From NCBI GenBank assembly GCA_036172245.1, contig JAYWIR010000052.1, positions 310,001 through 374,000 of the forward strand: a stretch of 64,000 nucleotides of DNA, in the 5' to 3' direction. The stretch is from Raillietiella orientalis (taxonomy: Eukaryota). Of this stretch, positions 2,763 to 59,727 are shown piece by piece. The notes under the pieces are model-generated. The model ran no database searches. It saw only the letters and a program-made list of their open reading frames with translations, and was not told the DNA's origin. The translations under genes and the position numbers were made by a program. How positions within the stretch are numbered: position 1 is the stretch's first letter; each line of letters opens with the position of its first letter.

Positions 2763-5700
2763 GAAGCTCGTTACTGTGATCTTGCCACCATAGCAACAAA
2801 ACCTCATTGCATCCCAGATTGTTGAAATTGTTGAATAGGCATCTCATCATTAATTTAATTTTATTTGCCAATATACAGTGATTCGGAACCCGTATCTTGC
2901 AAGGCTATTATAATTTAGTGCTACTATGGCTTTTGCACGTCCATGTACAAAAAAATGTACATTCTTGTGCCTGACTTTGAATTCTTGACTTCATTTATCT
3001 ATTTTCAACATTTTGATTTTGTAAAAAGCCTAAGAATACATTACTACCCACCCACTTTGGAGATTTTAATCGGGAATCGTCATTTACTGCAAAATATCCA
3101 TATGAATCAGTTTGAATGCTCATACCGAGACGAGCAGTTTGATGCAACTCCGGGATGAATTGCTTGTGCCATTGTGCCCCCATCAGCTGCGTGGATCCAA
3201 TTGTGTGCATTGAAATAGCAGGAGAGGACGAATAAGAAGAAAACTCTGCGAGGTTCCAATGTCACGGGAATTCTTCCCCTTAGGGCCACCGTCACCATAT
3301 GAAACGAATGGTGTGGTCTTTGCCTTAACAGTGCCACCCATTTCGCGGGAAGGACTCCTTACCGAGTGATTAATGCGGAGCTTTTAATAGCCCTATTAAA
3401 GTGTTTGGACCCTGGAATTACAGTTTGATTTTGTTACGATTACTTTCCAGGCATGAATTCGTTAATCTCTTTGCTGTGGGGTTTTCCAAAGCGTTCGTTT
3501 TGCACGAAGCCATTTTGCTCTCTCCTGTTTTGCCCCGGCCCTGGCGCATGCGCCGCCGTCCCCTTCCCGGAACGCGGGCTGGCGGCCGCTAATCTTCCTG
3601 GCTGTCAGGGACCGGGGCGGGCTGCATTGCGTCGCTGCGGTTTCCGCGACGTTCGAGCATCACCCCGAAGAATTGCTTGAAGCTTTTTTCAGCTCCCTTT
3701 CTTTTCTTTCTTCCTTTCCTTTCGGGGGGGAGGGGATCAGCTGTGAGCGCCACGTGGAGCGTGGTGGGAAGCATGGAAAGCATGCAAGGTGGAGCGCTGT
3801 GTTGGGGTCATCCCGCTGCGATGGGGTGGTTTTCTGTTGCAAATGTAACGTCCCCGTATTCAGAAACGACGCCTAGTTTTGTGTCCGGGGAGCACTGAGA
3901 TGAGGGAAGGAAGGCATTGCCCCTTGTTAGGTGGTAATCTGATCGAGTTATTCAAGCGTGGTGATCTCGATCGGGCGTGCTTCTCCCATGAGGACGGTGC
4001 AGCAATCGCAAGAACGCGGCAGCATGCGTTTGACGTCCAGAAGAATCTCTGGGACAAAAAAAAAAAAGGTGGAATTGAGAAGGCGGGGGGGGGGAGGGAT
4101 TTTTCTTGTCAGAATGCGAGATGAAACAGCTACACCATTAGGCCGGGATTCTGTGATCTCGTTCGGTGGAACGGTGCGCGCTAATTTGCACGCGAGTGCT
4201 GTGACGTGCCATCATCCCGCACCGGCTGGAAACGGGCCGTCAAGGAAACCTTTGAACGGTCACGCCAACAGGTTGACGACGACGCAGAACATTTTTCCTC
4301 CCTGCAGACCGACGGACGCGCGCGTTTTGCTCGTGACGTACGGTTGGACACGTCCGGATCGAAGCAAAGTCACCCAAGGGATACACGTCCTCCAGAAGAG
4401 GATGGCTGTGCGTCACCGTGGGCGGCATTTCGGATCACCGCCATCTCCGCTACCTCCTCCTATCTGCTCGCAAGCGAAGGTGGCGTGTCTTTTCCTTTGC
4501 CGCACTGGTCGGACGGGATGGGGGTGGGCGATATCGCGCGGAAGGCGCCGAAACCTCCTCCTCCCCGCCGGGCGACCCATCGCGGTGACCCTTCCTGAAG
4601 AGGAGGCGTCTTTCCGCCCGGTAGCTTCCTTCCCCGTACCCCGTCCCTCTCCCTCAGGGTGCCCAGCAACGCTCATGCGGAAGCCTCCCACCCCCACCTA
4701 AGCAGCTCACGGCGCTTGCCCGCAAGGGATGAGTCCAAGAAGAGGCTTCTGGTTGCTCGGCGTTGCTCGTCCTGGCTGGCATTCGCCTCAGCCCCCTCCC
4801 GTCCCGTCAGCCATGGCCTCCACCCCCTTGCCCCATCCCCCACTCAGCCCCACAGAAAAGCAAAGGAAAATCTCTCTCTTCCTCCCCTCCCCTTCTTCCA
4901 ACTCCCCCCCCCCTTTTTCCGCAGCGGGTCGAGGAAGGCGAGAAGGGCCTTCGGGGCACATGACCTTCCCGTCAGTCCGCATCGGGACCACCCGCGCGGC
5001 ACCGAGGCTCCTCCCGGAGGCGCTACTGCCTCCCTCCTCCTCCTCCTCAATTCCTCCTCCTTCACTTCCTCCCTTCTTCTTCCCTCTCCTCTTCCTTTTT
5101 TCCTCCTCCTTCCACCGCCGAAGAGCCCTCAGGGTGAGTTGCCATCCAGGCCGTCCTAGTGATAGGAATCTATTCCCCTCCAGATCTTCTGCTCCTGAAG
5201 GGGGAAGAGAGTTTCGGAGTCTCAGACGCCTCTGCAGCGTACCCAAGTCGACATCTCCGGCGCAACCGGGGTCGACGGGCGCGGCGGGACGGCGGGTCGC
5301 CTCCGCGCCCGAAAGCAGGAATCGGTGAGGGGTTTCCGTCCGAGAAAGAAGTCGGGACGAGGGCCGTCCCTCCTACAGAACGGTGATCCCCGCGGGGAGG
5401 GGAGAGAGGCTTTGCCGTCTCACCTGGAATCCCTCTGCGCACTTACCGAGTCTTCCTGGAAGAAGCGCTTCTGGAGCGGAGAAAGGGTGGCGAGGAGAAG
5501 CGAAGAGAAGATGGGACCAGAAAGCGTGTCCCTCGTTTCCCGGGGCTCTCTCTGGGACAAAGAAGGAAGGACGGAAGCGGATGCCCGGCTGCTCGCCTCG
5601 AGGAAGCAGCGCAGGCGCACAGCGCGCTTCTCCCACGCGTCACCGTCGCGGGGGCGGTGACTCTCCACACCCCTGGAATGCGGCAGAAGAAGACCCAGAA

Positions 5701-10729: not shown

Positions 10730-11420
10730 AATAGGTACGTGGGTGTCTCTAGTCTGAAGGAACAGGTACGTACATGCCCACAGGGTGCAGGTACAGGCAT
10801 CTATGTGTCCTTAGACTACAAGTACAGGCACGTAGGCGTCCTTAGCCTACATATACAAGTACGTACATGCCCGTAGGTACCAGGTGCAGGCACTCAAGTG
10901 CCCTCACTGTACAAGTAAAGGTACGTAGGTGTCCTTGGCACACAACTGCAGGTAGATGTCTTCAGTGCACAGAGACATGTACGCAGATGCCCATAGGGTA
11001 CAGGTACAGGCACGTAGGTGTACAAAAGGTACAGGTCGTAACTGTACAAGTGCAGGCACGTAGGTGTCCTTGGCGTACAAGTACAGGTGGATGTCTTCAG
11101 TGCACAGGAACATGTACGTATATGCCCGTAGGGTACAAGTACAGGCCCGTAAGCGTTCTTAGTGTACAGAGGCATGTGCTTACATGCCTGTAGGGTACAG
11201 GTGCAAATATGCAGAAATACAGGCACATATGCGCATTTAGTGCACAGATTCAGATGAGTAGGTGTACTTAGTGCATAGGTACCTGTACCTATGCACTAAG
11301 TACACACCTACTAATTATGCACTAAGCACACCAAGTCATTCAGATGAGTAGATGTATTTATCGTGTATACGTATGTACTCACCTGTATGCACTGCGCACG
11401 AATGCGTGGAAGCACGTATT
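10730..11420. repeat. Degenerate GTAC/TGCA-rich minisatellite with ~134-bp higher-order unit and a terminal inverted repeat
   Basis: Units starting at about 10907 and at 11041 align (actgtacaagt...cgtaggtgtccttggc...gatgtcttcagtgcacag...catgtacg...atgccc.tagggtaca.gtacaggc). Near-perfect palindrome at 11258-11311. Confidence 0.85.
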
Positions 11421-11877: not shown

Positions 11878-14800
11878 TCAGGGCAGCTTGCGGATGGCCT
11901 CGAGCACCCGGTGGCACTCGCAGGCGACGTCGCAGACGAGCGCCTGGATCTGCTCCTTCGAGTCGATGACGTCGATCCTCTGGGTGTAGGGGTTGTAGCG
12001 GACCGTGAAGGACCTCGGGATGGTGGAGGCGAAGGCCCTGGGAGCAGTGGGGTAGGCAGGAGGGGCGGACCCTCCTTCCCGCTTACATCATCTGGTCCTT
12101 GACCCTGGAGAAACTCTCAGCAACGAAGTACAAAGGTTGGTACTCCGTGATGGGGTACTCCTGGGTGCACGCGACGTAGGGGTCGAAGGGCTTGGCCTGG
12201 GCCTTCCCGCTGATGCTGTACTCGAGCTCTCCGAAGGAGGACAGCAGCCCCGCCCCGTAGGCCTTCAGCTGACCTTCCTGGTGGCACAGGCCGAACTCGA
12301 CGGTGAACCAGTAGCACTGCAGGAGGAGGGGCCGCCATTCCTTCCGCCTGTCTCCCCCCCGGCCCCACCCTCACCGAGGCCAGCTTGAGGATGTCTTCCT
12401 CCGGGGCGCCCAGGGACGCCAATCCGATCTCCTGGGAGAACTGGGCGAAGTCAGGGTCGGCGAAGAGGGGAGCATGCCCCAGGAGCTCGTGGCAGATGTC
12501 CGGCTCCGGGGTGTAGAAGGGGCAGCTGGGATGCCGGATGTACTGGGTGGAGAAGAACACGCGGAAGGCGAGCCCCGACAGGAAGTCCCGCGACGACAGC
12601 AGCCCGGCCACGGGGCGCAGCGTGAATCCCGTGCAGCCTGAGGGTGTTGTCCGGCCGTCGCGCGCGACCCCTCCCCCTCCTCCCTTCCGCGCCGCGCCCG
12701 CGGAGGTGGTGGTGGGAGGGGCTACCCACCTCGCAGGAAGTTGGAGACATCCTCCAGCTGGGGTATGGCGTCCTCGCAGTAGCCGCAGTTCTGGACCAGC
12801 AAGGGGAACGCATGGTTGAACTCCCGGCACGCGTGCTTCGCGTAGAGGTCCTGCAGCTTCCTGTAGATCTTCCTCCAGGTTCCGATCTCCTCTTCCGTAT
12901 ACTCGACCCTCGGTATGGGCTGCCCGCTGAGGGAGGGAAGGGCCAGCGCTCAGCACGCACCCCACCTGCGGGCGCATCCGAAAGCGCGCAGCTTACTGGT
13001 TGTAGCTGTAGGCGATGTCCGCGAAGAGGCGCCGTCTCTTCCGGTAGACCTCGTCTTTGAATCCAGGGTGGTCGGCGTCCAGCTCCGCCCCGTAGCTCAG
13101 GATGTGCTCCTTGCACTGGTCCAGGTCCTGGATCTTCCGGGGAAACCAGGGAACGGCGTCTTCGGGAGGAGGAGACGGGAAGCAACGCTCCAGCGCCGCT
13201 GCCCCCGTGCGCCGCCCCGCAACTCCACCTTCTGCTGGCAACGAGGGGGGAAGGGAAGTACCTTCCACAGTAGCCTTAGGCGAGACGATCTGCAGGTACT
13301 TGGACTGCTGCTTGAGGTCATCGATGATGGCCCGAAGATCGTAGTCGCTCTCCTTGAACTCGATCAGAAAGTCGTACTCCCCTGGATCCCTCGCGGAAGA
13401 CCTGGACTCGATGTGGCTGAGGCTTATCCCGTTCTTCTGGAGAAGGAAACGAGAATCGGGATTTCGCCGGAGCGGCAGCGCCGGCGGAAGAAGCGAAAAA
13501 GGGAGAGGGGCCAGGCGCGTGGTGAGAAATCCTCCTCCACCTCCTGCGGGAACGCGCGATTTCCTTCGTTTAGCGCCGGACCGAGAGGTGGCTCCGCGAC
13601 GCAGAGAGTGGCAGCGACGAGAATGCGCGTCGGCTTCCTACTCGGTGGTCGCTCGTCGGCTTCCAGCTCACGCGCGCCTCGCTGCCGGAGGTGGCAGCGC
13701 CGGCCACGACGAGCCTCCTCTATCGAAGCGCTCCCAGTGGCCATGAGGGGGGTACGAAGGGCAGAGAGGTCCAGGCGGGGACGTGGTCCAACGCCACGCA
13801 GTGGATGCTCCGCTTTGAAGAACTCCAGCGCGAAAGGGGGCCGCGCGCGTTCCCTGTCGACGACTGCGCCGTGTAAGCAGAGGGTCTATGCCGGGGTAAA
13901 GAGGGCGAGTAAGCAGCACTCCCGTCTCCCGGGAGACGGGCGAGCAGCGGGACGGCCACAAGAGGACTCTCTGCTCCGGAACTCTGCGTGGCCGACCGCC
14001 CTTCCGGATGACCCCCGGAAGGCGCCTCCTTCCGGGGCGTCTTCTCTGGAGGCGAGGCGGCCGCTTCAAGAACGCTAGACTGACCTTGAAGACGTCGAGG
14101 ATGCGGGCGAGAGCGCCGATCTCTTCCTGCATGGAGATGATGATGCGCGTGCTGCGCTTGGTGTTCTCGCATGGTTGTTGTTGCGTCGAGCCCTGGGGAC
14201 ATGGAAACACCTTGCTTAAGTTGCGGCACCATCACGGTCAGGGTGCCGCCGAGGCATCTGGTGCCAAGCGCTAACAAGCGGAGGAGGGGTGAATAGGAGC
14301 CCCTTCTGCCCGCTCAGGGAGCCCTTCCTCTTCATGCTGCGCCCTGGGGAAGTGCTGACAGACCAAGGGGTGAGCACAGGGCGCTGCCAATTCTTCCTTC
14401 CTCTCCTTCCCTGGCTGCAGGGGACGCCTCTGCGTGGGGTATAGAAAGGGAAGCTGGGGAGGGGTTAATGCGCCGGACGGAGGAAGGCACGCGCGAGGTC
14501 AGCAGCCCGGTCACGGGAGAGGAAACTCGATCCCCTGGGGGTGGACTGCTCGTGGCTTCTCAAGCCAGAGGCGACGGCCGCGATGACAATGCGGTCCAGA
14601 AGTGTTCGCAGGTAGCGGCACGTCGGCAGGAGAGAGATGCTGACTCTGGACCAGAGGTCCCCTCCCTCCTTCCCTGACCGAGCGGAGACCGTGCCAGCGC
14701 GTCCCCGCCTCGTTCTGCGCTCTCCGCTGGAGGCGGCCTATCCACCTGGATGTAGGGGTGGAGGACGACGGTGGTCGCGAGCAGGGCAGGGAGGCCGCAG

Positions 14801-19926: not shown

Positions 19927-22730
19927 TCTGGGCGTACGATGCTCAACTCGAGGGAAAAAACTGCTCCGTCTCGAACCGGATGAACAAATGCTGATGATGA
20001 TGATGACAAGCGAATTGCGGTACTACGCCATTGGGAACTGACCGGTCGTCAGTTAAAATCACACCTTACTCGCAAGCAGTGATGCCACAAACAAAAAAAA
20101 GACGCTTGGTATTGGAAAAACGGACGTACGAAGACAGATTCGAACTCACGGGAAAAGACCTTCATTACTATTCCTTAGAAAAGAGGACACATATTGCATG
20201 TTTAATGTAAACCTTGCAACGCAAAACTCATGTGCTGAAACAATACTTTTATTGAAGAGTCCATTGTATATACAAATGGGATGCATATATACAGAAAGTG
20301 CGTACAATTGATTCTATCTATTACATATAAATACGTATTTTCTATATTAAATTTGCACCCTTTTAAACCCTATTTAATCTCCATAAGAAAGCAAACAACT
20401 TTCGTCTTCGTCCATCATACTTCTCAAGGGAATCCCAATGACTTGACAACTGCAACTTGGAAACGGATCCAAAGTTCGTGGAGACTCTAGAATATAATAA
20501 TTATAAGTTAGCATGTAGGTAAGCGCCATTCCAAATGTGCTCTCTAATTAAATATTCGACACAACTTTTATTACGATTCCGATCGACACTGATAATAAGT
20601 TTTGCACGTACCATAATGCAGACAATAATTATTTCACTATTCATTACAACAACTGAAAATTGCTTTTCCTAGTGAAAAAAAAAAAAAAAGTTCCGACGAA
20701 ACTTCTAGATGCCCGATACTTCGCAATGAAATTTGAACTCATCAGTAAAAATTGCATTCTAATGAGTAAGCTAATACAGCGCCTTGAACCCTATGAAAAG
20801 TTGTATAGCCAAAAATATGGAACTTTTTAAAGATGTTAACTTTTGTAGAGCCCCTTGAAAAACACAGGATAGAATCGAACATTTGGGATAGAATAAATAA
20901 TAAATTGTTTGTGTTGAAGTATCAGTTTCAGTCGGAAATCAGAATATCAGGAGACTTTCGATCTGATCAGCCTTGATCTGAACAAGATGCCGAGATTAGC
21001 GATCGTAAGAGGAGTGTTTCAAGGTGCTTCTCAAGTTGGTTGTAGGGGATCTGTGCAATTAAATGATCTAAACTAGCTAACGAGCTGAACAGTAGTTCGA
21101 GAAAGGCAAATAAGCAAGCATGTAGATTCATTCATTTTTTTTGTCTTCCTTCTACACACCTCTACTCTAGGCAGTTTGCTACTAATATTCAATCATGTAC
21201 TTGCTGCTTCACATTACCTAAAATACTGAAACAGACAATAAATTTTGTGAGGTATATTTAATTGAAATCTAATTTTTTCTCCTGAAAAGTAATTGCTCAT
21301 TTATTACCCAAACGATTCCTTTTTCGTATATGCGAAAAATCTGGATCGCAAAATCGAGCTTCCCAACCCCATCCAATTTTTCATTATGCAATAAGGAGAA
21401 TAAGTCCGTCTCCAATCAAAGTATGGGTGAAACACGAAATTCTTCCAAGAGTCCATGAAATTAAAAGAGACATTTTCCTCCCCCCCCCCCTCTCAACCTT
21501 CAATAAACTGCTAAGAACTATTATTTATTTAATTAATACTGCTAATTTGAATCATTATGTCGTACACGTTCCAGTGGTTAGTGTTCACTTCCTTTTCCAT
21601 TTAGAATAGTTCTTTATTGATGAGAAATTAGAATTCCGTTTTCGCATATCATAAAAATTAAGAACTGAGTTTGAGTAATTGTTTCAAAAAGATCCTTTGA
21701 GACAAAGGGTGAAATACGCGTTCACTTTTGAAAACAAAAGATAAAATATTGGAATTTTGGCATGAAATCAGTGCAATTATGATGCGTTCTTTTTTCTTCT
21801 TACGTTCAATCTTATAACTGATTTGTGAAACATTCGAATTTGAGTTTTCAACGTTTGCATGTGCATTTATGTACATGTGAAAATAGATTTCAGTTCTTTT
21901 CTAGATGTCTACCTTCTTATTCGTCATCACGATAACTTGAAGTAAATTTCGAATCTTTATACTAAATCGTACAAGCACCGCTTTGTGTGAGAAATCTCAA
22001 ATCTTGTGGTGGTTTGGAATATGAAGTCTTCAGGACACAACAAGGGACCGAAAACGCTACAGAAATTGAAAATGATTTGAAATCCGTGAGGGTAACGTGA
22101 GAACACTGCTCTTGTATATGAAATTTCTGAACGTTTGTTTCTGTTAAGGAATCCCCCCCCAAAGTGAAACATCTTTCTCCATTGGGTTGATGCTGCATTT
22201 TTAGCACGCTATTCTTTTACCGGTAGTAAGCGTTTCGTTTCCTAATAAGTTCCTGCTCCCCGTAGCATGTCTGAAAGCTCAGCTGTAAATGAGGCCAGAA
22301 TTTTAGATCATTCATATGTTTTATAGACTTCCATTCCCATTTTAATCATATTTATACAGTAGATTTTGCAGTTTGGAATTTTGCGTTCGAGTGTTTCCTT
22401 TCGCTTTTTCCATTCTCTGACAAAGGTTTGGTACATAAAAATGAAACGATGGCACTACGTTTGGGTTGTTGATTGTTAAGGATTGAAATGAACTGTATTA
22501 CCGAACTTTTCTTCCCTCTCTCTCTTTCTCCCTTTTTTTAAAAATAGAAACTTTATTTCTAGCATACATGGAGGCCTCAAACAAAGGATTTAGCTAAATG
22601 TTGCCTGCACTTCCAATTTACTAATTTTTAATGCTTGTGAATGAGCATACACAGCCAGTGAGCATGTGGACGTTTTCACAATAATCCGCTGTATCGGGAT
22701 TTATAAGGCATCTTTTCGCTTGAAAATTTC

Positions 22731-24148
22731 ATGACTGCTGAAACGTTTTGCAAGATCAAATGTAACTCGATGGAAGTAGATGAGAAGAAATATATCAATC
22801 TTTTGACCAATTTCGAGTTTTTCCGCTGCTTAGCTATGCCACAGCCCCAAAGAAGCAAGTACATGCTTGATATTGTAAATGAAAGGAAAGCTCGACTTGG
22901 TCCAGCTGCTGACTCTTTGCCAGGTATAAATACAGCCTGACTGTCATAACTTTGATTGAAAATTATGAGGACACAATTCTGTATACTGTTTTGCAGATGA
23001 CATTGTTTTCAATGCTTCATTCCGTCAGCCTTTGCTGTCTGCGATGGAATGCCTTATTCAACAAAAAAGGTAAGTACATTTCACTAGTTTAATCAATTGC
23101 TAGTAATTAAAGTTCACTATTAATGTGTTTCATTACATCATAAAGTAAGATGCATGCATGTGGTATGCAAAGTTCGCATCAGGAAAAGAAAGACACACTT
23201 CCAAACAAAAGTGAGTCGACAGAAGTGTTCCTTGGAACTTCATCCACCAATCTGACTAAGAAACACAATGAATTTTATTCACAAGAAGGAGATGATGATC
23301 CTCACACCATCCGACAGAAGCCGTGCAAGAGTGAAAACAGCTCTTGTGTTGAAACCGAAGTTTCAAATGATAGGCAGCATGCTAAAGAAATCAGTAAGAT
23401 GAGACAACTTAGGAATCCAAAAATAGTGTTACATCGTTACCATGAGTTGGAAAAGACTGGATCACGGACTGGTTTATTGCAAAAAATCATGGATAAAGCA
23501 GATGCTATTTATCATAACAAACTGCAGTCCAGTAGATCTGACTATTATGTTCAGAGGCATGTGTTATTAGCTTTGCTTGTAGCTCACCAAAGTGAATTGG
23601 TGTTATCAGATTTGGTATCCATGACAATGCAAGAAGTGGTTGCAGGTCATGTGGAACAAGGACTGTTCAGTTTTACAGTTTCTCCAGTTCTATCTAACAG
23701 TCACCCTAAAGTCATCATTCTCACGCCGCCATATGCCCAATTCCTAATTAGTTTTCTTCTTGGTGCCAGATTCCATGCAAAGATGAATAGGCAGACAAAG
23801 TATGTTTTTTTCCAGTTCAGCAGGGGCAAAGTTTCCAAACTAAGCAACTCTTCTGTTAGTGTAAGTTCACCGAGTATCATTTGCATCTCGTGATGTGCAT
23901 GTGTATTGCAGAAAAGTATCCATAATGGCTGGAGCATTATAAGCAGGGACACAAATATTCAGACAATGAAAGAATTCTCTCAGCATCTTGCCTACACATA
24001 TCCCCATTACAAGCAGAAAATGAAGCAGCATGCGTCCGAAAACTCGCAGTTCCTACATACGGAAAAAATAAAGAACTTGGATGAAAAGCGTGTTCTTAGC
24101 ACTTTGCAGAAATTTACATTCTCATTGAAGGCTCAAACACAAAGCTAG
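22731..24148 (+). CDS. Uncharacterised ~405-aa protein, 4 exons; C-terminal half resembles a tyrosine-recombinase catalytic fold lacking catalytic motifs
   Basis: Exons 22731-22923, 22997-23069, 23146-23860 and 23912-24148 join in frame (intron phases 1, 2, 0; total 1218 nt) with GT-AG introns of 73, 76 and 51 nt. AATAAA at 24312-24317. The gene model is well supported; the fold assignment is inference and the start codon is uncertain. Confidence 0.8.
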
Positions 24149-25389
24149 GAGAAGCGCGGAAGTACACCGGAAGCCTATGTTTGAACGACAGCCCCTGAAT
24201 GAGGATGCAGCCTGCAGAGATATTTCAAACTTCGTGCCTTCTCCAAGTTTGTATACAGAAATTTTGCTAAACGGCTCGCGCTGCGTTTTTTTTTTTTTTT
24301 TTTTTCTTATGAATAAAAGTTGGTGCTCTTCGAATTTCGAGGGTCCGTGCGTCATAATTTGAACTGCGTGTTGTCCGTTTTGAGGGCTCCAGGAAGAGTT
24401 CGCTGGTGTAGTCAAAGTGCTAACTAACTTTTTGCAGCCAGAAAAGTGTGCAAGCTAGAGGAATTGCGTACCCGGAAATACGTCTGGTCAGTGTCTCCAA
24501 GCGGTGCGGCCATCGACGACGACGGAACCGCAGAGAGTCTTCAGGTTATCTCGGCCACGAAAGAAGTCGGAAGCGTTTGCTTCCGCAAGTGGGTCGCGCC
24601 GCCCTTCCGTTCGCATGCGATTGCTCCGGGTGTTCCTTGCAGTCCCTTGCATCTCCTCATCCCGCGTGCAACGAGAGAGAGGTGACCCCTTGTCCGTCGT
24701 CGACCACGGTCCAGTCGCATGCGCGCTGTCTCCGTGTCGCGGATGCAACTCGGGACTGCGATTCCAGCCGGATTCGACATCGGCCCGTGCGTGGACGTGC
24801 TCCACGCAGAAGCCGCCGTGGTGCATCCGCGTGCTGGAAGGCCATCTCTAGACGAGGCCATGCGTCGCGGAGGGCACATTGGAACAAGTACGGGTCCAGG
24901 GTCACCTAGCACAGCTTCCCTTCTTCCGGTACTGGAGGCGGGCGCTGCAAGGAAGTACCCACAGCGAGATGTTCGTCACCCGAGGCCAGCCCCAGGCTGT
25001 CCGCACATACTGGTGGACTACTGCATCTGCTGAAGTGATATCCAAGGGGGTCGCCGGCGTCGAGGGGGTCCTAGGGTATGAGCTCGCGGGGACGCCACCA
25101 ACCGACCGACGGTTTCAAACCCCCTGCGGTTTGTACACCCTGTCGGCATTCGGTATGCATTCCCCGGGGCGGTAGCCAACTGCCATCCCCTTTGTGCTAG
25201 GGAGACCAACGTGGCGGCTAAGGATGGAGCCCTTTTCCCTGGATGGAATGTAGATGGTGCCTGTTAACAAACGTCGTCGGGGAAAGAGCGGTTCCGAAAA
25301 GACCCCCGTGAACTTTGCTCCAGTATTTGCAATCTCCTGCCGCCAGGCGTTCACCTGTTTTAGGGGGGCAGGGGATCTAGGAATGCTGC

Positions 25390-31400: not shown

Positions 31401-33760
31401 AGCCCACCCTGCACTGTTGCAAACCGGACCACTGCAGCGCCTCGGGCAAACGCGCGCTCTCAACAGCGGCGCTTGCGACACGGCATGCGAAGAGGCGTGA
31501 AAGAGTGCAACGGTTCGTCATCCGCCCACGCACGGGACATCTTGGTTTCGTCTACAGCCCATGATGTAAACAGTCGGCAGCGTTGCCTTCTGATGCCAGA
31601 GGCGAGTCTGTCGCTACGGCTCCCACAACCAACACGTCAGCCATCCCGACATGACGCGATCCCCCGGAACCCTTCAGAGGCTTCCTCAACCTCCCCAACT
31701 CCCTCCGACTCTTCGTTCTTTGTGCTGTAGCGCAGATCTCGTGGACCTGGACGAAAGATCTTTCTTTCGTCCAGGCTTGCATGCGAGCATTCAAACGTGG
31801 GCGAGTCCCAATTGATTAAGACTAAAATCAAAAGAAAGGTTTGTGCAGACAACGCTATTTTATTCAGGTGTGATTTTGCTATGCGGGCCGCTTTGCCCGA
31901 GATCTGCCCGGGCCACAGCTGAGAATAGTCGGCACAATCTCAAAACCAGCAGCCGTCGCTGAGCAAGCAGAGAATCTTCGAGACTTGCTGCCGTGACAGA
32001 GCTTCCATAATGCATCTGACCAACCCCTCATGTGACTTTATATGAAACACAGAAGCAGCACGAGAACGAGAGGCAGGCCGGTCTGCCTTGGGCTGCTGCA
32101 CACCGGAACACTTTCAACACCGCAGTCAAACTATTGCATTCCACTTTACAGAGCACTGTTTCGTCATCCCATTCTAACATTCTACTAAGCATCGGAATTT
32201 ATCCCGTTGCGACAAATAGATAGCTAATTAAAACATTTTAAGTTACACTGCAGCTCTTTCACTTGCTAACACCTTGGAAACCTTCAACTAAGCAAAAAAC
32301 GCGGAACATGCATGGATACTTCAACATCTTAAAATCATCCAACTGTTGGAACTGAAACTATTGTGATCATTTGACAGCATGTTAACCACATTCACTGACC
32401 TCACTGCAGGAATAGGTCAACCACAGAGAGCAACGGCACCAAAACTTGCAGACCAAACAAGTACTCTGACTGGTTCACAGCTTACAACAAGAAATTCAAT
32501 AAACAGGAAGATAAACCACACAACCTTAGATGAAATCTCATGGTGCATTGCTGAAGGCTGAACAGACTGAAGGAACAGCAGACTGGTGATGCCAAAAGAA
32601 CGCCCAATGCATGCAAAACAGCTCAGAAAAGACCCAAACCAGGTCACCATTGCATTCCCAAATGCCAGGGTTGGAAACCAGGAAACGACCAAGCAAGGGC
32701 AGGGGTAATGGGCACGGCAAATTGGTGAATTCCATCACCATCGAAAGAGGTTGCCATTCATCGGATGTCTCAGGTGTGGTCGAAATGATCCCGGCAAAAT
32801 CGAATTCTCTGAAAGCCGCCGCTCACGAAAGGAATTCTAACGATCTCGAACAATACGAACGTTTCAGGCGTACACAACGAAGGCGAATGAATACACAAAA
32901 CCTTCCGAATACACCTAAGAAACCAAGAAAACCTGAACAATGAATAACAAATAAAGGAAGTCGCAGGAAAACCCACTAGCAGGAAATCAACAAGCAGACA
33001 GACTCAGGATAACTCTCTCCAGGGCACAAGAAAATCAATTCTGTAGTATCTGCGTGCCCTTTTTATTGAAAACCCAAGCATTCATCCCATATGCAAGCAA
33101 GTACCATGTGCAATAGGAAAATATCCGATTTGTTCCTGAAGAACTTCATTGGGTCTTTGAATGAAGATGTTCATTACTTTCAGGAATAATCTTATTTTTT
33201 ACTCGAGTTTGCAACTACAGGCAGCATTGCATGAATCAATGGGCAATTGCCCTCTAAACTATTTGCAGCAAGCGAAGCTGGGACCAGGGCAATAGAACAT
33301 GAACTTGCATTTCCCATGGGAGAAGGAAGACTGTAAACTCTGAGCAGAGAAAAACTTTAAGATTCAAGACACGACTCAAAGGTGTGCAACCCTATCAACA
33401 CCCTGCTACTGGCTACCCTGACAACAAACATCCATTTTGCTTCAGAACTGCATACCTTGCCATCTACTATATTCAGCTGTTTGTGAGCAAATCTTCACAA
33501 TCTGATTGCTTAACTGCTTGCACTGCTGACTGTGAAATGCTACACACATCCACCCATCAAAGTTTTTCTGTACAGTGCTGAAAATTTTATCCTGGAAACT
33601 GAAGCTTACAGTGACATGATACTGAAATCTCAGGTATGAACTGGAAACTTGAAAACAAGCTATATTAAAAAAAAAAAAAAAAAATCGCTTGACACTGATT
33701 TTGGACGGACAGTTTGCTAAAATCCTAAGTTTTCCACAGATGATACACTTCCAGCTTTCC

Positions 33761-35140
33761 TCAAGAGAGCAGAAAAAACATGATTATAGGGAAAACAACA
33801 GAAAATAATATGGCTTCCTTCATGGAAGGACTGCCATTGCAGCGTTCATCAAGGTTACAGAAGCACCAGGTGACATTTGAGTAGTAATTTCTGAAACTCT
33901 TGCTATCAAAAGATAGCTATAATACTGCAAACCTTCGGATATCATTCTCCTTAATGTCTTCAACAACGTAATGACCTAATTTGAGATCTCTGGTGTTTGG
34001 ACGACACCCTTCAGAAGTGTCTGCAGGAGTATCAGTCCTTATTTTCTTAAGGGAGGAAAGGCAGTCTCTAGTTATCATGGTCTCTCCTGAAGAATGCGAA
34101 GTGCTTTCAGTGCACAAGATGTTTCAAAGACTCACCCTGTCTACGCTCAATTATTTTAACACACATATCATCCCAAAGATCACAAGCCCATCCGGCATAC
34201 CATAAGCCAGTAAGGGCACCTCCACATCCAGGATGTGTACTGATACACTTGTAACAGTATAAACCTTTCACATTGTCTAGAAAGAAAAACAACAAACAAA
34301 CATCAACCAAAAGCAGTTTGGAAGTAAGTTCATAAATTGGCATCTGAATGGAATCACACTGAACGTAGTCATTTAGAAAAGGCATTTCCTTCGAAATTCG
34401 GATTTCATATTTCACTTGTAAACGAGCTTTACGTGGGAGATGGTTGAAATTATCGGTGCAAAATATGCTCCACTCATTCATGAAAGCTAATAAGAAGAAG
34501 GAGAAAAAAAAAACAACCAAAAAAAGGAAGAAAATCACATTTTTTAAAACACGCATTTAGTCCACTCTACAGAAAAATAGGCTCGGTAATTGAAATTACC
34601 AGCAAAAACAAATCCTGGAAATCACTTCTGCTGACAATGGGGCAACATTTTGTCATTGGGTATACAATCCTGCTGCATTGGATAGTCTTTATCCGGTTAA
34701 GATTTCGAGTAAATACAAATCTAGTTTGAAAGTTTTCGTGTTTCAGCAAAAGATGAAGCTGAGGCGAAAGTGAGACTAAAGTATGCAGGTTGCAGATCGC
34801 TTTCACCGATTTTTTTTTTTTTCTGATTCAAAGAATTCAACGAAGGCAATGAGCTTTACACGGCAAGCAATTCGCACTGTGCTACACCGATCAAGAAGGC
34901 CACCCATCTTGAAAGACCTTCACATCCAAATGTGACCCCACGGGCACCTACCTATCCCACATACGGCTTCCCACACGTTTAAGAGGTAGTTTAAAACTTC
35001 ACTTATCACATATGCACGGGTGCAGGAGCAAAGAGGGCCCCCAAAACGCCAAACTCACCAGTAAAGCAAAACAAACACAGGACAGCTATACGTATGCATG
35101 AGTTCAATGATGCTGCTGGGAACACATTTCTTCTAGACAT
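33761..35140 (-). CDS. crim: Ly6/uPAR three-finger GPI-anchored protein, crimpled-like, 4 exons
   Basis: Signal peptide MSRRNVFPAASLNSCIRIAVLCLFCFT (35059-35140), then LYCYKCISTHPGC...CDLWDDMCVKIIERR, ITRDCLSSL...TPADTSEGCRP...KLGHYV and NYYSNVTWCFCNLDERCN, ending in the hydrophobic GPI signal AILFSVVFPIIMFFLLS*. The pattern matches my recollection of Drosophila crimpled; the symbol is less certain than the family. AATAAA at 33062-33067. Confidence 0.88.
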
Positions 35141-35810
35141 TTTATGATGTTCCACATCGCTTTCCGCCCACACCGCGTAGGTCCATGGAACTCCGTGCTG
35201 ACTTCGGACTTCGAACTCGCCTCAAGCTGTAGCTTTGGCACCCCACCTACAAGGGTTGCCAGACGCACGCGGGCACATTATCTTTCGGAAAAGTGTCGGA
35301 ATGCGGCCATGTGGTAAAGAGACAGAAGAAGACCCCCCGTTTCCCCCTTCCCTTCCGAAAACAAGAAAGATTCTAAAAGAAAGCTCTGAAAAATCTCGCC
35401 TAACGAAAGAGATTTTTAATTTTCGATATGAAAGGAAAGGAACCGGGAATCACCACAATCTCGAAATGCACGCAACGTCTGGAAAGTCACATCACTTTAT
35501 CGATTGCTGCAGCAGATGGAAAAAAAAAAAAAATCTTTTCTGAGAAACGTGTCTCTTGAATAGCGCCAAGATGCGTAGATGGAAACGAGTCGCGGCTTTT
35601 GACAATCAGAATATTGCAGGTGCACAGGAAGATGATGATAAGTGCAGGCGGTCGGATCACAACACTGGCTTTTCTTAAATAATAACTGAAAATAAAATGG
35701 AAGCCCACAGGAGGAAGGGAAGAAAGACGGGAGAAGGATGAGGAAGGGAAGAAGGAAAGGAGGAGATTTCGACAAAGCCGAATGAACTGCCCTCTATAAA
35801 CTCAGCTTTA

Positions 35811-38800
35811 TTAGGACGATCCGAAGGCCAGCATCTCTCCCCCCTCTTCCAAGGTATTGTTCCAGTTGGTCCAAACGTAGCCGAAGTACTTGGGATCAGC
35901 CCTCAGGTCTTGAAGGGCGTTAATGGGGGTGACTGTGGTCTTTCGGAACTCCAGCAGTTTGGCGAGAAGCTCTTTCCGAAGAGTCTCATTCGTGTGGTAC
36001 AAATTCACGTATTCACACGGGTCTTCTTCCACATCAAAGATGCAAGGAGACGCGATGCTGCAGGAAGACGCCTGCTCGAGAGGAGGAGGAGGCCCGCAGA
36101 GGATTTGGGCCCCTGTCGGAGGCGAAGGATCCATCCGCAAACCCCGGAGGATGCCCAGGGTCTTCTCCGACGTCCTCGTCGCCTCGCGGTAGCTCGTCTC
36201 TGGGCGCACCCCGACATCCCTTCCCGAGGGGCCGTACCAGCCATCCCAGGCCCCTCCGTAGATGGTACCTGCAAGGTCGGCCGAAGGTCATTGAGTTCCC
36301 TCTCTCTTGCACCTAGTCCGAGACCCGGTCCGGGTGGCCGGCGGTCAGCTCCCGTCCTCGGCCCACAGGCGACGAAGGAGGGGAGAAGCCGTCCTCTGCC
36401 CCCTTTCGAGCAAAATGCGAGCCACGCATCGCCCGCGTCCCCTGGAGGAGGTGTTTGGCGCTTGCAGTGCTGGGGGAGAGGGAGGGCGCGAGGGAGAGAT
36501 GGCGGTCTGCTAACCACCCGCGCGGGCCCTCCCTGCCACGTCAGAGGGGGAAGCGACCAGGGGGGGGTTCTGCGCTTCTTCCCCTCCCGGGCAGAAGAAG
36601 GGAGGCGGAGGGGGACCCGAGCGACGGGACGAGTCCGTGAAAGGCCCTTCCGCCGCATACCAGGCGCGAGAGTGACCACCCGCACTGACCTGCCACCAGC
36701 TTGTGCTTCCCCACTGTGATGGCCGAGTAGTCAGACTCCCATGGGTCGATCTGGTGCAGGATGTCGCTCCGCGGCGACGGTTCGCCGCAGCAAAGGTGCC
36801 TCCACTGGCTGACCCCGTCTATGCCCTCTGGAGGGGACCCTCCTGGGGGCGGAAAGAAGCTGCGGGGTCGTGCCCCCCGGCCTGGCCGCACTCACCCGCG
36901 GCCTCGAGCAAGGTGGGCAGCCAGTCCGTGACGTCCATCAGTTCCGTGGACACCCTGCGCGGCTCCCGGAAGAGTGGACTCCATGCAAAGGCGGCTCCCC
37001 TGATCCCGCCTTCCCATAGTGTGCCCTTCACCTAGAAAGGGAGGAGACGAGTACTAGAGGGACATCCGCGTCGTCGGGGAGAGCCATCTCCTCCGCCGCA
37101 TGCGACATCCCGCGCCCCCGGGTGGCCTGCACACCGCAAGCGGGTGGACCAGCGCGGGAAGGCGCGCAGGCCGTGCACCCGCGGTGGCAGGACCCCAGCT
37201 TCCTCTTTTCCCTGTGCCCCAGGGTGATCCTCCCCTCCCTTCCCCGGGATGGACGAATTGTGGGATGAGGCGGAGGCCGGCTCGTGGAGCGCGCCCTCAC
37301 CCCCCTCAGGGGCCAGTTGGAGGCGGCGTTCCTGTCGAACCCCGCGGCGGGGCCACCGTTGTCCGTGGTGAAGACGAGGACAGAGTGGTCCAGCAGTCCC
37401 GAGGAGTGGAGAGCCTGGAGCAGCAGCCCCACGGACTCGTCGAGCTTGGACACCATGGCTGGAAAGGTCCGGGGCAGTGGGCGTGGGGAGGCATCGGAGG
37501 GAGACTTACCGGCGTAGAGGCGCCTGTTGACGTCAGCGATGTGGGCGAACCGCTCCACGGCGTCCCGGGGTGCCTCCAGAGGGTTCCACGGCAGGGCTGA
37601 GTGCACCGCGTTGTGGGAGACGTACAGGAAGAGGGGCCGATCCGGAGGGTGACCCCTGATGATCCGGACCGCCTCGCGGGTGTATGCGTCGGTCAGGTAC
37701 TCTCCGAAGGCGTCGGACGCGACGGTCATGTTGCAGCGCAGGTCGGACCCCCACATCGCCTGCGGTCGGAAAGGAGGAACGGGGTCAGACTCCTGGTCGA
37801 GCCTTGCCCTCCCCACCGCCCCTCGGGGAGCACTCGCCTGACCCAGGTTGACCTCGTACAGGGTGTGCGTGTAGTAGGAGCAGTAGCCCAGCCAGTTGCC
37901 GAAGTGCGACTGGAAGCCCCGGGCGGTGGGCGTGAACTCCCGCCGGAAGCTGCCCAGATGCCACTTGCCGACCGCATGGGTCACGTAGCCCAGTGCCGAG
38001 AGGTCCTCCGGCAGGATGCGGTACTGCAGCGGCAGCCCTCGGGGCTCCGCCCCGTGGATGACGTCGTGCTGCATGCCTGGGGAGGGGAGAGGTACAAAGT
38101 GGGCGGTGGGCCCCCGCGGATGGGCCCGAAGGGGAAAGGGGGAGGCGAGAGGGCACTCCCTCGGTCCCCACAAGGATCCCTTCCAGAACTACCAAGGAGG
38201 GCGCCCTCTCAAGGCGGTCTTCCGGGAAACCCAGGACTCCCCGGTCCACCGAGCCTGGCTACCAGGGGAGGCGCTCATGTGACCGGGAGAGGGCAATGCG
38301 CGGCGTCGCGCTATCCTGAGACGGCTCCCGGCCTGGAAAGAACGGATCCCCTTTCCCCACTACGCCCCGGCGCCTGTGCCGAGCAGCGTCCCGGCGTCCC
38401 GGAACCGCAGCCCCCTGACCTTCCTGGAACTCGCGCAGGACACGACAGGAAGGGAGGGTACGCACCGGGAGACGGGCAACGGCCATCCTGGCACCGTCTC
38501 GACGAGACGCGGGAGCAGCTCCTCGACCTCGGGACCGCAGAGTGCCCTCAGGAAGGCAAGCGAGGGCACTTTGGAGATGGCCAGCGCCTCTCCCGTAGGG
38601 TTCAGAAAGCGAGAAGGGATGAAGTTCCCAGAGGGAAGCGAGCACTCCTCTAGGGAAGCATCAGAGTCCTTCTCCCCGGGGAAGGGCTCGCCCGAGAGCG
38701 TTCCAAAAGGGCTCCGCCACTCGCTGGAACTCGCGAAAGAGAACAGGGCAAGCTGGGACCCTGGGAGCGGAAACGGGAATGGCCAGGAGGAATTGCCAAT

Positions 38801-41455
38801 TAAAAGGGAAGGAGAGCGTCTTTTTCAGGAAGTTTCAGTTCTTCCAGCGAAGGATACTGAGGGGAAAGGACGAATGGAGGGGCAGAGGAGGAAGAAGGGA
38901 AGGGCAAGAGCAGGTAGGAAAGAGGAGGAGGAGTAAAAAGAAGAGAGAAGGAGCCTCTCCTCTCGGCGTGCTAGGGACTGCCCTGACGCCGCCGGAGGCG
39001 TCCGCTCACCTATCCGGGACGAGTACCTCCCAGTCAGCAGAGCGCTTCTAGAAGGCGTGCACAGGGGGTTAACGTAGTAGCGGTTCAGGATGACCCCGGA
39101 GGAGGCGAGGGCGTCGATGTTCGGAGTGGGGATTTGCAGGGACCCGTGGAAGCCGACGTCGTTCCACCCCTGAAATGGGAGTCGGAGCGTGAGGTGGGTC
39201 TCTCCTGGCAGACTCTCGCCCGTCCGCCCCCGCCTTCTGCCGGCCCGATCGTCCCGGAAGAGACGGGAAAGAAAGGGGAGGGAAGCCCGCCTCGGAGTGG
39301 AGGGGAGTTCCAGCCAGCTGCCTCGCCCACCGCCGCCTGCAGGGCGCGGATCGGGAATTGCAGGGATGACTGCCACGACGACGGCGGCGAAGGTCACGGT
39401 GGAGGGATGAGAGCGAGGGGAGAACGCCCGGGGCGCATCGTTGCAGATTCTTCCCCTCACTTGTGACCTGCCGCCGGGGAGGGCGACGCAGGAGGGGTCC
39501 GTTCCGCGTTTTCCCTCTGTCGGCGTCCACCTGGACATTCCGCCGTCATCCCCTGCGCCACTGGATGCACCGCGAGAGAGGTAGGGTGGCTTTCCCCCTC
39601 TGCCCTTCAGGGCCCATCTTGCTCCCCTCTCAACGCCCCCTTGAGGTCAGTCAGACCAATCCCCCTTCCAACGAGTGCGGAGGGATCCCTTCGAGTCTTC
39701 TTACCAAGCCTCCGCGACCTCCTCGAGCAGAGACTCCTGGCCCCTTTCCTCCCGGGAAAGCGCTCCGGTGGATCCATTGAGGACGACCAAAAGCCCATCT
39801 TTATGTGTGATCTCCCGTGTTCCACGCGGTCCGAGTGGAGCAGCCATGCCTGAGGGGCACAGCACGTCCGGCACGCCGAGAACACGCGTGGCATCCGCTG
39901 TGACCTTACGAAATCTCCCAGGGCTCATCGCAACGTGCCACAAGGGTCGCGTTGTCCATGTGAGTGGCTGCACGCGCGTCACTGAGCCCGCTATGCGTGC
40001 CTGCACTGCTCTAATCCCGTTGCTCCCGTAGCCAAAGGACTGTTAGCCGCGATCCTCCCTCCCGGGACGCCTCCCCTGTGGCCGCGGCTTCCACCGGAGA
40101 GGCTTCTTAAGACCGCTCCTCCCGGAGACGCTCGCGCCTCCGGAGCCGGCCCAGCGTTCCAGGAGCCGCGAGCAGCCGGTGAAAGGGTTCCAGACGTCTC
40201 GGCGTGCTTCTCCTGGGAGACCTCCAGCTCTCTCTCTTCCCTGGGAAAGGAACCGTCCGTCCTCGGAGCCGGGAAGCGATGGGCCTCAAGGGACGCAGAG
40301 GACCCGCGATCCGCTGCTGGCGAGGAAGGAGGGCGGATGGGAGGACGAGGAGGCGAGGTCGTCGTCCGCGTTCCCCCGGGGAGCGTGAGGGGGCCGCCTC
40401 GCCCCTCGAGAAGTGGCCGCCCGGGGCGCTCATCCGGCTCCCCCGCGGAGCGGAGGCAGCTTTGGAGGCACGCCCTTGGGGAAGAACCGCAGCGACCCTT
40501 CCCCGGACCCCTCTCCCCTGCCGCGACCCCCTCCTCGGCGAGCAGACGGCCTTGTGCAGCACCTGCAGGGAGTGGGTGCCGGAAGGCGCCGCCTCCACGC
40601 GTCCACGAGCGTACAGCAGGGTTGAACGCGCTTCCGCGCGCGAAGCAGGGAGGGGGCGCGGAAAGGGAGACAGAGTGAGGAATGGGGCAGGGAAGAGGCA
40701 GAGAAAAAAAAAAGGCACCACGATCGAACGAGGGGTCTCAGGGGTCCTGCCGTCACTGGTCCCTCTCCCACCCCTTCCGCGAGAGAGTTAGGGACTTGAC
40801 CTGGGGGAGAGGGCGGGAAGGGGAGAACGCCGGTCCACTGGGCGCCCTGCTCTCCCGGGGTTCGAAGGTCAGGGGGCGGACGAAGTTCTCGCACCATTTC
40901 TGGGCGCTGGGATTTCCTACCACGAAGCTGCCGCTACGCGGGCGAAGAGGCTGGGATCACTGCATCCCCCAGAGACGCCCCCTCCCCTTCCTCCCGATCG
41001 TTGACGCATCTCCTTCGTCCCTCACCCACCCCCCTCCCCACCTGCTGCCTTTCTGAGGCGCCGCGGGGGAGGAAGGGAGGGGAGGGAGGAAAGCAACGTG
41101 GAGGCGGGAGACGGATCGGCAGCTGCAAACGCCCCCAACGACCCGTTCTCCTCCCCCTCCTCCCCTCCCCGGGGGCCGGCGACCCCGCGGCGCGCACGCG
41201 GGAGCCACGTGACCGCCCTTTCCGGCTGCGCGGTCCCCGCGAGGCCTTCCGGAAAGGACGGTCCCCTGCGGGGCTCCTGCTGACCTCCGCATCTGCCCCG
41301 CGGGGCGTCCCCTCCCCCCTTCCCACATGCCCGCATACCAGGTCGTCGGCGACGATGAGGATGATGTGGAGTCTGTCCGCACGAGCGGCGGCGCGGTCCC
41401 CCGCGGGGGTCGCCGCCAGCATCCACGTCAGCAGCAGCGTCAACGCCGGAAGCAT
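35811..41455 (-). CDS. Arylsulfatase B/I/J-like secreted or lysosomal sulfatase, multi-exon
   Basis: Signal peptide [35 protein letters not shown]; formylglycine motif [66 protein letters not shown]. Confidence 0.95.
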
Positions 41456-41991
41456 CGCACGACCGCTCACCGTCGGCAGAGCGCGAACGTGCCGCCTCCC
41501 CCTCGATCCCTCCGGAAAGGGAGGGGAGGGGACGCGGCGACCTCCGCCTCCGTGCGCGAGCGCTGCCGTGGCTTCCCTCCGTCCCCTCTCTCGCGGGTCA
41601 AGGCCTCCCTCCTGCTTCGCCTCAGGCGCCTCCTCCCAGGAACGCCTCCGCATCCCCGTGTCTTCCCGACGCGAGGCTGCCGCCACACCCTCGCGCATCC
41701 TCCTCCTCCCGGAGGCGCAACGCCCCCGACCCGTGGTCCAGAACCGTCGGCGCGAGCGGAAACTCCCGAGCTAGCGACCTCCCGGCTACCGGGAATGCTC
41801 CGGGGAGGAGCCGTCGCCGTCGCCTCCCTGCAACGAAGACCTTCGAACAGACGACCTGGGAAGGCTCTCGCCCTCCGGGCTGGGGGAGCGCTCGCTCGCT
41901 CGCTGGACGCGGACACCTCCGGGAATGGGCGCCGCGCCACGGGGAGAGCCACTTGACCCCCCTCGAGCTCGCTGCGCTTAGCCAGGCCGCA

Positions 41992-44900: not shown

Positions 44901-46766
44901 GCGGAGGAACAGAGAAGGACAGCACGGGCCAAAGTGAGCGAAATGTAAAGGCGTAAATGCCCGGAGAGCCTGCCTCATGCCCCGCGGCCTTTCGATGCCA
45001 AGCCAGACGCGAGGTTTCGAATAGCCCGAAAAAGGTCTGCGATCGACCCTCAGAGTGCGACATTAAATTACAGTTAGCATTCAAGAATTGGAGATATTGG
45101 GTGACCTGGCCGTCCATGTGTCGGCCACTCATTACGGAAACTTAGCGGAAACTTCTTTTAACGCTTGCGGGTCAATGCAGCAGATGACATGGTGATTTCG
45201 GATGATTCCACCATTGAAGTCATCCTCTGCTTCATACGGGATGCAAGTGCACCGTTTGGGACCAACGCAGGGCTCAAACCTCACACTTCGCCACGGGCCC
45301 AGTAAGTTCTGCACCCTGGCTGTCTCCTGAACGCAACATCCCGACGAAATTTCTCGCAGGCTGACACGTTTTAGCCCTGAACGAAAACAAAGATGCAATG
45401 TTTTCTCGTTCCAAGGATGCTGCAGCATTCCCGCAGCCTACTCACCAACGCCACTTAAGCGATGCGATCATTGTAATGATGATGCTCGCTTAACCACACT
45501 CCCGGTTTAAAACAGGCTGAAAACGCATTCCCACGTGCGGGATCGCTTCTTTGCAACAACACGCGTGGTGCGGTTTGGTGGAATCTCATCGGTCCGACGT
45601 TGGGTCACAGTGCCTTGAATTCAAACCCTTTCGGTGCCATCACCACCGGCTGGCCATCACCAGTAGGCCACCACCGCTGGGCGGGGTGCACTGTCCCCGT
45701 GGACAGCATCCGAAGCAGTCCTCTTTTACCCCGGTGCACCACAGGTTTGATAAAGAGGAGCCATAGGGATCAACACGTTTCAGGTGCGTTTCAATGATGT
45801 GCGTAATAACTTGGCAGATGAATCACAACACGAATTACGTAACTCGGGGTGATTCGCTTTGAAAAGCAGGGTGACAACCCAGCATCGGGCTCTTCTCGCT
45901 CATGGCTGGGTCCACGTCTCCGGATTTCAAATGGATGGTGCAGCACGTTCGCTGGGAATCCCGGATGCTGCGAAGCCGCCACTTCTCGCCCGTGGTGCGG
46001 ATGCGGAGGAACTTCCTGGCCGAAATCTCCTCCAAGTGGCACGCGAGGGAAGATGGTGGTGCCTCGTGCGTCGGCTTCTTCTTCTGCAGAGAAAGGGTCT
46101 TCAACCGCGTTACGTGTTCGCGGGATCCGCACTCTCACCGCAGTTGTCGGAGTCCGTCCGTTTCGGGATCGCGCGCAACGCGGACGTGGACCGCGCCGCG
46201 GTGTTCCGAGGATCCCCGCGTGCATCGCGGGATGGCCGAGACCTAAACCACCCATCGAGATGAAAAGCCAGCAAGAAAGCCTTTCAGCAGCCAACTGGAA
46301 GTACCCATCGGCAATTTCCTCAGTGATGCGTAGAAAGATGCCTTTTTTTTTTTTATTTTTTTCGTGTGTTTGACTTTCGTGTGTTGCACGCCTGCACGAC
46401 GTGGACACTGTGACGTTCAGGGCGCCGACTGAGAAGGAAAGTGCCATCTGTAGCCGGGACACGCGACTCCATACGTGCAATCGCCACGGCTCGCTTCTCT
46501 TGCTTTGAGCCTTGCGCCCTGCTGCACCCACGATCACTCTGTGGATGCAGGCTGGAGCCGGCGTCAAGAGCGACGGGGCCAACGAATATCGAGACCCCGG
46601 CTGCAAGCGTGAACTTTCGCGTGGTCAACGCAGGCGGTGACGAGAACCACTCGTGTACACTACCCGCCAACAAAATGAAACAAACAAAAAAACCATACAG
46701 TATGTACTTTATTTGGCAAATAAATTTGCACAAAACAAAATGAAACATGCAATAAGGCTTTTCACT

Positions 46767-53700: not shown

Positions 53701-53789
53701 TCAAATTCATAATCCCGCCGACTGCTGCTGGTGAAAAAATGCCTCCTTACAATTACAAGTTCACATGGCAAATACAAATGTGAGCATTG

Positions 53790-54473: not shown

Positions 54474-54504
<31 letters not shown>

Positions 54505-59724: not shown

Positions 59725-59727
<3 letters not shown>

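Follow-up and report, generated by a model that had tools for sequence, protein, structure and literature searches.

The locus at positions 22731-24148 of the + strand of the 64-kb window (the whole stretch of DNA that was analysed) is probably a real host gene with predicted splicing, and its 405-residue product is an orphan without detectable relatives. The reading that we favour, tentatively and at slightly less than an even chance, is that this lineage-restricted gene of an arthropod-like genome carries a diverged recombinase-derived fold. The protein would consist of a short N-terminal segment, a Ser/Glu/Lys-rich linker that is probably disordered, and a C-terminal alpha/beta domain of ~200 residues, which would most likely be a very diverged tyrosine-recombinase (DNA breaking-rejoining) fold with all of its catalytic residues lost. 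Such a domain would be unable to cut and rejoin DNA, because every catalytic residue is gone, and would serve as a DNA-, chromatin- or protein-binding module, a function that, like the recombinase ancestry of the candidate protein, we infer by analogy with recombinase-derived host proteins.

Joining the four exons by their coordinates gave 1218 nt, an uninterrupted frame of 405 codons closed by a stop. The features of the gene model are as follows.

22700..22708 (+): TATA-like TTTATAAGG, ~25 nt 5' of the first ATG, read from the sequence as a candidate core promoter element
22731..22923 (+): exon 1, 193 nt, donor CAG/GTATAA
22924..22996 (+): intron 1, 73 nt, GT..AG, GC 0.33, phase 1
22997..23069 (+): exon 2, 73 nt, donor AAG/GTAAGT
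23070..23145 (+): intron 2, 76 nt, GT..AG, GC 0.25, phase 2, weak pyrimidine tract at the acceptor
23146..23860 (+): exon 3, 715 nt, 238 full codons (P0001), reading frame 23147-23860
23861..23911 (+): intron 3, 51 nt, GTAAGT..CAG, phase 0, in-frame TGA at 23891-23893
23912..24148 (+): exon 4, 78 codons plus a TAG stop (P0002), predicted helical
24312-24317 (+): AATAAA polyadenylation signal, 164 nt past the stop, with ~20 consecutive T ahead of it and close to the end of the AT-rich island

Exon 1 begins at the first in-frame ATG downstream of a stop at 22704-22706, and exon 2 was recovered in frame by tblastn with the spliced product as query; both exons are predicted from reading frame and splice-site logic. 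Two of the three donors are GTAAGT, and a clear pyrimidine tract lies ahead of two of the three acceptors. If the TATA-like TTTATAAGG is used, the first ATG could lie at or ahead of the transcription start, and in that case translation would begin at the next in-frame Met, residue 14. An ATG at 23150, inside exon 3, is another possible start. Within exon 3, the Ser/Glu/Lys-rich linker, recognised by its composition, is followed by helices and three strands, as judged from the secondary structure of a low-confidence model. The DNA sequencing run X1 provided a single identical contig of 356 nt over 22895-23250, introns included, and otherwise only low-complexity matches, which has no bearing on relatives or copy number. 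Both the intact four-exon open reading frame (GT..AG introns, splicing predicted) and the polyadenylation signal reported in the first-pass annotation were recovered, and the peptides quoted there are all present: DYYVQRHVLL to KLSNSSVS in exon 3, KSIHNGW at the start of exon 4, and also NPKIVLHR.

The surroundings of the gene were analysed by a Pfam scan of 141 open-frame translations in the window, 136 of which gave no match. The matches obtained with the other five, together with the AT-rich islands of the window, are listed below.

901-1122 (+): ArfGap
12996-13637 (-): Biopterin_H
37031-38188 (-): Sulfatase
46770-48159 (-): CDC37_C and CDC37_N
1-3000, 20000-24330, 32300-35700 and 46700-54500: AT-rich islands, GC 0.37-0.42

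The protein of cricket Cdc37 aligned to the window as five blocks separated by gaps of ~40-90 nt. Short introns are therefore a habit of this host, and the three introns of the candidate gene fall within the size range of these gaps. No Rfam families were detected in the 64-kb window.

One question to be settled is whether the locus is a gene at all. It might instead be AT-rich intergenic DNA in which open frames arose by chance and are fortuitously linked by splice-like signals. We consider this alternative very improbable. It would agree with the lack of any homologue, with the shortness of exons 1 and 2 and with the weak acceptor of intron 2. Against it, the open frame that holds exon 3 runs for 249 codons and is longer than any frame found in 300 shuffles of the island 20000-24330 (maximum 183, mean 99), and exon 4 is an 84-codon open frame placed in register just after a consensus donor and acceptor. 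In addition, exon 3 reached a recognition value of 2328 in the ESM Atlas, within the range of real proteins; according to the tool, values of at least 2300 are obtained by 91 of 100 known families and by 9 of 100 shuffled proteins. CpG depletion limited to the gene body also argues against chance frames. The observed/expected CpG ratio was 0.43 (23 CpG) in the body of the candidate gene, 0.29 in that of ArfGAP and 0.48 in that of Cdc37, and it rose to 0.94 (80 CpG) in the 2.7 kb upstream of the candidate gene, which are equally AT-rich. CpG loss confined to gene bodies is what germline methylation of transcribed genes usually leaves behind in arthropods. Because the loss is confined to the gene body here, it lends indirect support to transcription of the candidate gene in the germline. 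From these features of the DNA we infer that the gene is transcribed and spliced. The exons have a GC content of 0.39-0.41, and the third-position GC of the ArfGap and Cdc37 exons is 0.38-0.50, which bears out the AT-rich composition, akin to that of the housekeeping genes, that had been ascribed to the locus; the sulfatase frame, located in a GC-rich block, has a third-position GC of 0.83.

Several other features of the window were observed. The window is a mosaic with sharp borders, in which the AT-rich islands alternate with GC-rich blocks (GC 0.62-0.68, with 1-kb windows of up to 0.75). ArfGap, Cdc37 and the candidate gene lie in AT-rich islands, the genes for biopterin hydroxylase and sulfatase in GC-rich blocks with a CpG ratio of ~0.9. 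This mosaic looks like an extreme form of a division into methylated and unmethylated compartments. The AT-rich stretch 20000-22730 contains no convincing open frame and no Pfam match, and with its undepleted CpG (ratio 0.94) it could represent regulatory DNA or a promoter, or else an unmethylated spacer. The stretches 48200-54500 and 32300-35700, also AT-rich, show many short open frames, no Pfam match and CpG ratios of 0.63-0.72, and may contain unrecognised genes or other orphans. A diverged tandem repeat array, with a unit of roughly 90-100 nt and copies 67-75% identical, occupies 10733-11205 in a GC-rich block. At 56185-59964 (-) and in adjacent frames, within the GC-richest block, open frames of up to 1259 codons occur in several frames and on both strands. 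They encode runs of Gly, Arg, Pro and Ala, and contain GA, CT and CA microsatellites; no Pfam match was obtained among those scanned, which were the higher-complexity frames only, and these long frames look like by-products of stop-poor low-complexity DNA rather than genes. Finally, the sulfatase-type gene at 37031-38188 (-) and 35814-41770 (-) has several GC-rich in-frame introns that are read through, so that its exons are fused into a 386-codon frame; gene finders that rely on stop codons would mis-model it.

Relatives of the candidate protein were sought in several collections. Pfam gave nothing at E values of up to 10 for exons 1, 3 or 4, which were queried separately, the putative domain being split by intron 3. 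Among PDB sequences nothing matched exon 3, and the sole match of exon 4, to an augmin subunit (E 0.66), was taken as noise, as were matches to unrelated or unnamed families of PHROGs and NCBIfam (E 0.03-0.23). In a collection of 5.8 billion protein clusters, 210 candidates shared words with the query and none of them scored. An exhaustive HMMER scan of 1.84 billion representatives returned no match at E values of up to 0.001, and none of the 48 pattern matches in metagenome contigs and 4 in viral contigs was confirmed by tblastn. The orthologue comparison proposed in the first-pass annotation thus found no orthologue in any collection searched, and consequently yielded no alignment, covariation or dN/dS. 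The same kind of search with the Cdc37 exon retrieved 153 relatives, of which the best were 64-67% identical; the named ones were nearly all from insects, and those from a mite and a crayfish scored lower. The source clade is therefore barely represented in the collections, since even the best Cdc37 relatives on record reach just this level of identity. As far as the collections searched extend, the candidate gene thus lacks conservation across insect orders; confinement to one species does not follow from this, because the source clade is unsampled.

Possible recombinase similarity was located in the third exon, in the segments indicated below.

23462..23827 (+): part of exon 3 laid by structural aligners on Cre/XerH, P0001 residues 106-227 against the first half of the catalytic domain (Cre chain residues 132-254)
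23570..23731 (+): Box I-like segment and, after it, a stretch resembling a beta-hairpin (spliced residues 231-284), from hhalign and Smith-Waterman alignments; no Arg at the site of the first catalytic Arg of recombinases

When residues 100-238 of exon 3 were compared with the ESM clusters, recombinase-type families were present in 22 of the 30 nearest named clusters, with scores of 0.90-0.92. Seventeen of these carried PF00589 (Phage_integrase), two PF16684 (ResT/TelK), two PF12012 (DUF3504) and one PF16787 (NDC10_II). With the whole of exon 3 and all clusters allowed, PF00589 appeared in 3 of 30 and the other 27 were unnamed. The matches share about 100 of 256 features, which according to the tool is typical of chance or of distant relatives, and ten like-family matches are also obtained by a third of shuffled proteins. 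For a structural comparison, 350,542 PDB chains were searched by Foldseek with the exon 3 model from AlphaFold. XerH occupied ranks 1-6 (E 0.08-0.36, probability 0.3-0.6, 116-122 aligned columns), and variola topoisomerase IB appeared at ranks 8, 9 and 33; the poxvirus type IB topoisomerase shares the catalytic fold of the tyrosine recombinases. A second look with VIA aligned Cre/Tre and XerH co-linearly with the model over 81-104 residues, from the first residues of the catalytic domain onward, and two designed proteins gave comparable lengths (97 and 99 residues).

At the sequence level, a home-made profile was built from 15 recombinases (lambda Int, Cre and the 13 PF00589 loci of E. coli K-12). 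The best local alignment of the spliced protein with this profile by hhalign placed residues 231-284 on Box I and the hairpin with P 0.14, a score that was matched by 11 of 300 shuffles (p about 0.04); the Box I region of the profile was the best-aligned place for 89 of the 300 shuffles as well. Smith-Waterman comparison with the best E. coli PF00589 locus also put the best local alignment on the Box I stretch (z 1.47). XerH, Cre, lambda Int, XerC/D (PF00589) and the poxvirus topoisomerase IB thus resemble the candidate protein in the top Foldseek matches, in the long co-linear VIA alignments and in the position of the best local alignment. The bacterial and phage recombinases differ from it in that no score is significant and in that the candidate has eukaryotic introns and none of the catalytic residues.

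This exon 3 model has a mean pLDDT of 38.0 and a pTM of 0.22, values at which, by the tool's own warning, structural matches carry no meaning. Exons 3 and 4 were folded separately. No Foldseek match of the exon 3 model in the PDB reached E 0.001. The wide VIA search, which is independent of Foldseek and covered 48,161 chains, revealed no recombinase among the 50 matches listed, all of them helical hairpins on model residues 103-165, and in BFVD there was no named integrase among the 50 matches listed, many of them unnamed. By hmmsearch with the 15-recombinase profile the spliced protein ranked 38th of 502 against shuffles. Exon 4 was silent throughout: its model consists of two long helices (pLDDT 63.9) and found no Foldseek match at E values of up to 10, and its score against the profile was reached by 64 of 200 shuffles, with the best alignment lying off the second active-site box. 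Neither Pfam, nor PDB sequences, nor the 15-recombinase profile, nor hhalign provided a significant sequence or profile match to the tyrosine recombinases. The fold suggested in the first-pass annotation is thus neither demonstrated nor disproved. Convergent but weak evidence for it comes from the ESM neighbours, from the top Foldseek matches and from the Box I alignment; against it stand the lack of a significant score, the silence of exon 4 and the lack of named recombinases among the matches listed in BFVD and the wide VIA search. Likewise, the AlphaFold and Foldseek check proposed there brought up XerH for exon 3, from a model of very low confidence, and nothing for exon 4.

These results have to be weighed against the alternative that the candidate is an unrelated orphan, that is, a fast-evolving or new host gene whose C-terminal domain has either a private fold or one of the other common alpha/beta folds. 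A hydrophobic helix, then three strands and another helix would in that case resemble a recombinase by coincidence. We regard this as unlikely, while giving it considerable weight. All the statistical tests of recombinase similarity were non-significant or marginal, there is no catalytic residue to anchor an alignment, two of the three library searches with the exon 3 model show no recombinase, and the number of shared ESM features lies in the chance range. Coincidence is less easily reconciled with the agreement of language-model features, Foldseek 3Di+AA comparison, and profile and pairwise alignment on the same superfamily and on the same register, at the start of the catalytic domain; these lines are not fully independent, since Foldseek and VIA were run on a single model and every line draws on the same 140 residues. 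Nor is it easily reconciled with the run of recombinases and topoisomerase IB within the top nine Foldseek matches. Tyrosine recombinases and type IB topoisomerases make up, by our own estimate, a small share of PDB chains, and for this reason such a run would be unlikely by chance.

The catalytic residues expected of a tyrosine recombinase (Box I Arg, hairpin Lys, His-x-x-Arg, His/Trp and C-terminal Tyr) were searched for in the spliced protein, and this set is not present. No Arg occurs between residues 227 and 296, a span that covers the Box I-like stretch; the sole HxxR motif is located at residue 142, in the linker, with none in the C-terminal domain; and no Tyr is found after residue 360 of 405, which corresponds to residue 33 of exon 4. 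The absence of the Box I Arg, and of HxxR from the C-terminal domain, agrees with what had been reported before. If the recombinase fold is true, the domain is, by its predicted sequence, catalytically dead. The chromatin-partner motif of the PxVxL type that had been suggested upstream did not withstand analysis. PKIVL is the only fit to the loose pattern P-x-[VI]-x-[LMV], and this pattern occurs in 467 of 2000 shuffles of the protein, so that the motif is uninformative.

A recombinase-like domain might also have reached this locus as a decaying or non-autonomous remnant of a mobile element with a tyrosine recombinase (Crypton-like, DIRS/Ngaro-like or viral), whose reading frame survives only because the copy is young. 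Neither transposase, reverse transcriptase nor integrase domains were found among the 141 Pfam-scanned translations. No terminal inverted or long direct repeats are present at the gene or at the island, and no dispersed repeat touches the island. Two candidate pairs of element ends flanking the island were rejected as chance occurrences: a 15-nt direct repeat at 19900 and 24802, made of GC-rich 15-mers off the composition boundaries, and the A/T runs at 20675 and 24286, which are homopolymers also off these boundaries. The many dispersed near-identical copies that would betray an ordinary transposon were not observed, as no second copy of the candidate gene exists within the 64-kb window. Should the fold be recombinase-like, it is from mobile elements that animals are known to have acquired domains of this sort. 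Cryptons, which are among the elements reported from insects in the excerpted text of PMC3212892, can do without long terminal repeats, and the lack of repeats is therefore of little weight. On the other side, the catalytic residues are gone and yet 405 codons and three splice junctions are intact, a combination more in keeping with selection for another function than with decay. The copy would not be young, because its divergence lies beyond HMMER detection among 1.84 billion proteins, and the gene body is CpG-depleted like those of host genes. Taking this together with the single copy in the window, we consider a mobile remnant improbable. The host-like character attributed to the gene at first reading is sustained by its Cdc37-like intron sizes, its ArfGAP- and Cdc37-like CpG depletion, its single copy in the window and the lack of terminal repeats and mobile-element domains nearby.

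The closest known systems are the host genes with a DUF3504 domain (PF12012), which derive from Crypton tyrosine recombinases and include arthropod WOC and vertebrate ZMYM2/3/4, QRICH1, KCTD1 isoform b and KIAA1958 (Kojima and Jurka 2011, PMC3212892, excerpted text). In the same excerpt, DUF3504 domains are stated to have lost the catalytic Tyr and the second Arg, their genes are described as highly conserved, and binding of DNA, chromatin or partner proteins is proposed for domesticated recombinases. The candidate resembles them, as far as that excerpt describes them, in being an intron-containing host gene with a recombinase-like domain (putative here) that lacks the catalytic Tyr and the second Arg and for which a binding role would be expected, and PF12012 is present in 2 of the 30 nearest named ESM clusters, where 11% of the members carry it. 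In contrast to them, the candidate protein has no PF12012 match at E values of up to 10, it is small (405 residues) and without MYM zinc fingers, BTB or another partner domain, and no orthologue of the gene was found in the collections searched. If it is related to DUF3504 at all, the candidate gene would be a separate and far more diverged case.

Cryptons themselves encode only a tyrosine recombinase and have been reported in fungi, cnidarians, sea urchin and insects (PMC3212892, excerpted text); those of Glomeromycota that encode DUF3504 are the subject of a 2026 paper (PMC13465315). The candidate is likewise a eukaryotic protein whose only recognisable part, if real, is a recombinase-type domain, and the host range given in the excerpt includes insects. 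Unlike a Crypton, it lacks the R-H-R-Y tetrad and terminal repeats, and it has the composition and CpG content of a host gene. An active Crypton is not supported, the catalytic residues being absent and one copy being present in the 64-kb window. Yeast Ndc10/Cbf2 and Gcr1 are also counted among the recombinase-derived genes in the excerpt of PMC3212892. The candidate shares with them a non-catalytic recombinase-derived DNA-binding domain (predicted in this case), and PF16787 (NDC10_II) appears in one of the 30 ESM clusters; they differ in being fungal proteins with further domains, and the candidate protein has no sequence match to them. In the literature on domesticated Crypton recombinases and DUF3504, no arthropod case beyond WOC is apparent from titles and abstract openings, which leaves its absence from print unproven. 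A bolder form of our favoured reading would be that a tyrosine recombinase was domesticated independently in an arthropod lineage, unrelated by descent to WOC/DUF3504, that it has diverged beyond the reach of sequence methods, and that its product is now a germline-expressed DNA- or chromatin-binding protein; we regard this as possible and somewhat doubtful.

Few host genes derive from inactivated tyrosine recombinases, and those known (WOC/ZMYM, KCTD1b, KIAA1958, Ndc10/Gcr1) are old; their roles lie in transcription, telomere protection and kinetochores. Were the fold reading wrong, the candidate would be an ordinary orphan gene, one of the many without annotation in an arthropod clade that is poorly sampled, and its interest would be modest. 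If it is right, the candidate would be a new, independent and much more diverged dead recombinase that has been domesticated. It would then offer a small, tractable protein for asking what role the recombinase fold plays after the loss of its chemistry. It would also mean that family-based annotation still misses cases of lineage-specific recruitment that have no sequence link to known families, and that animal genomes recruit dead recombinase folds more often than the family databases show.
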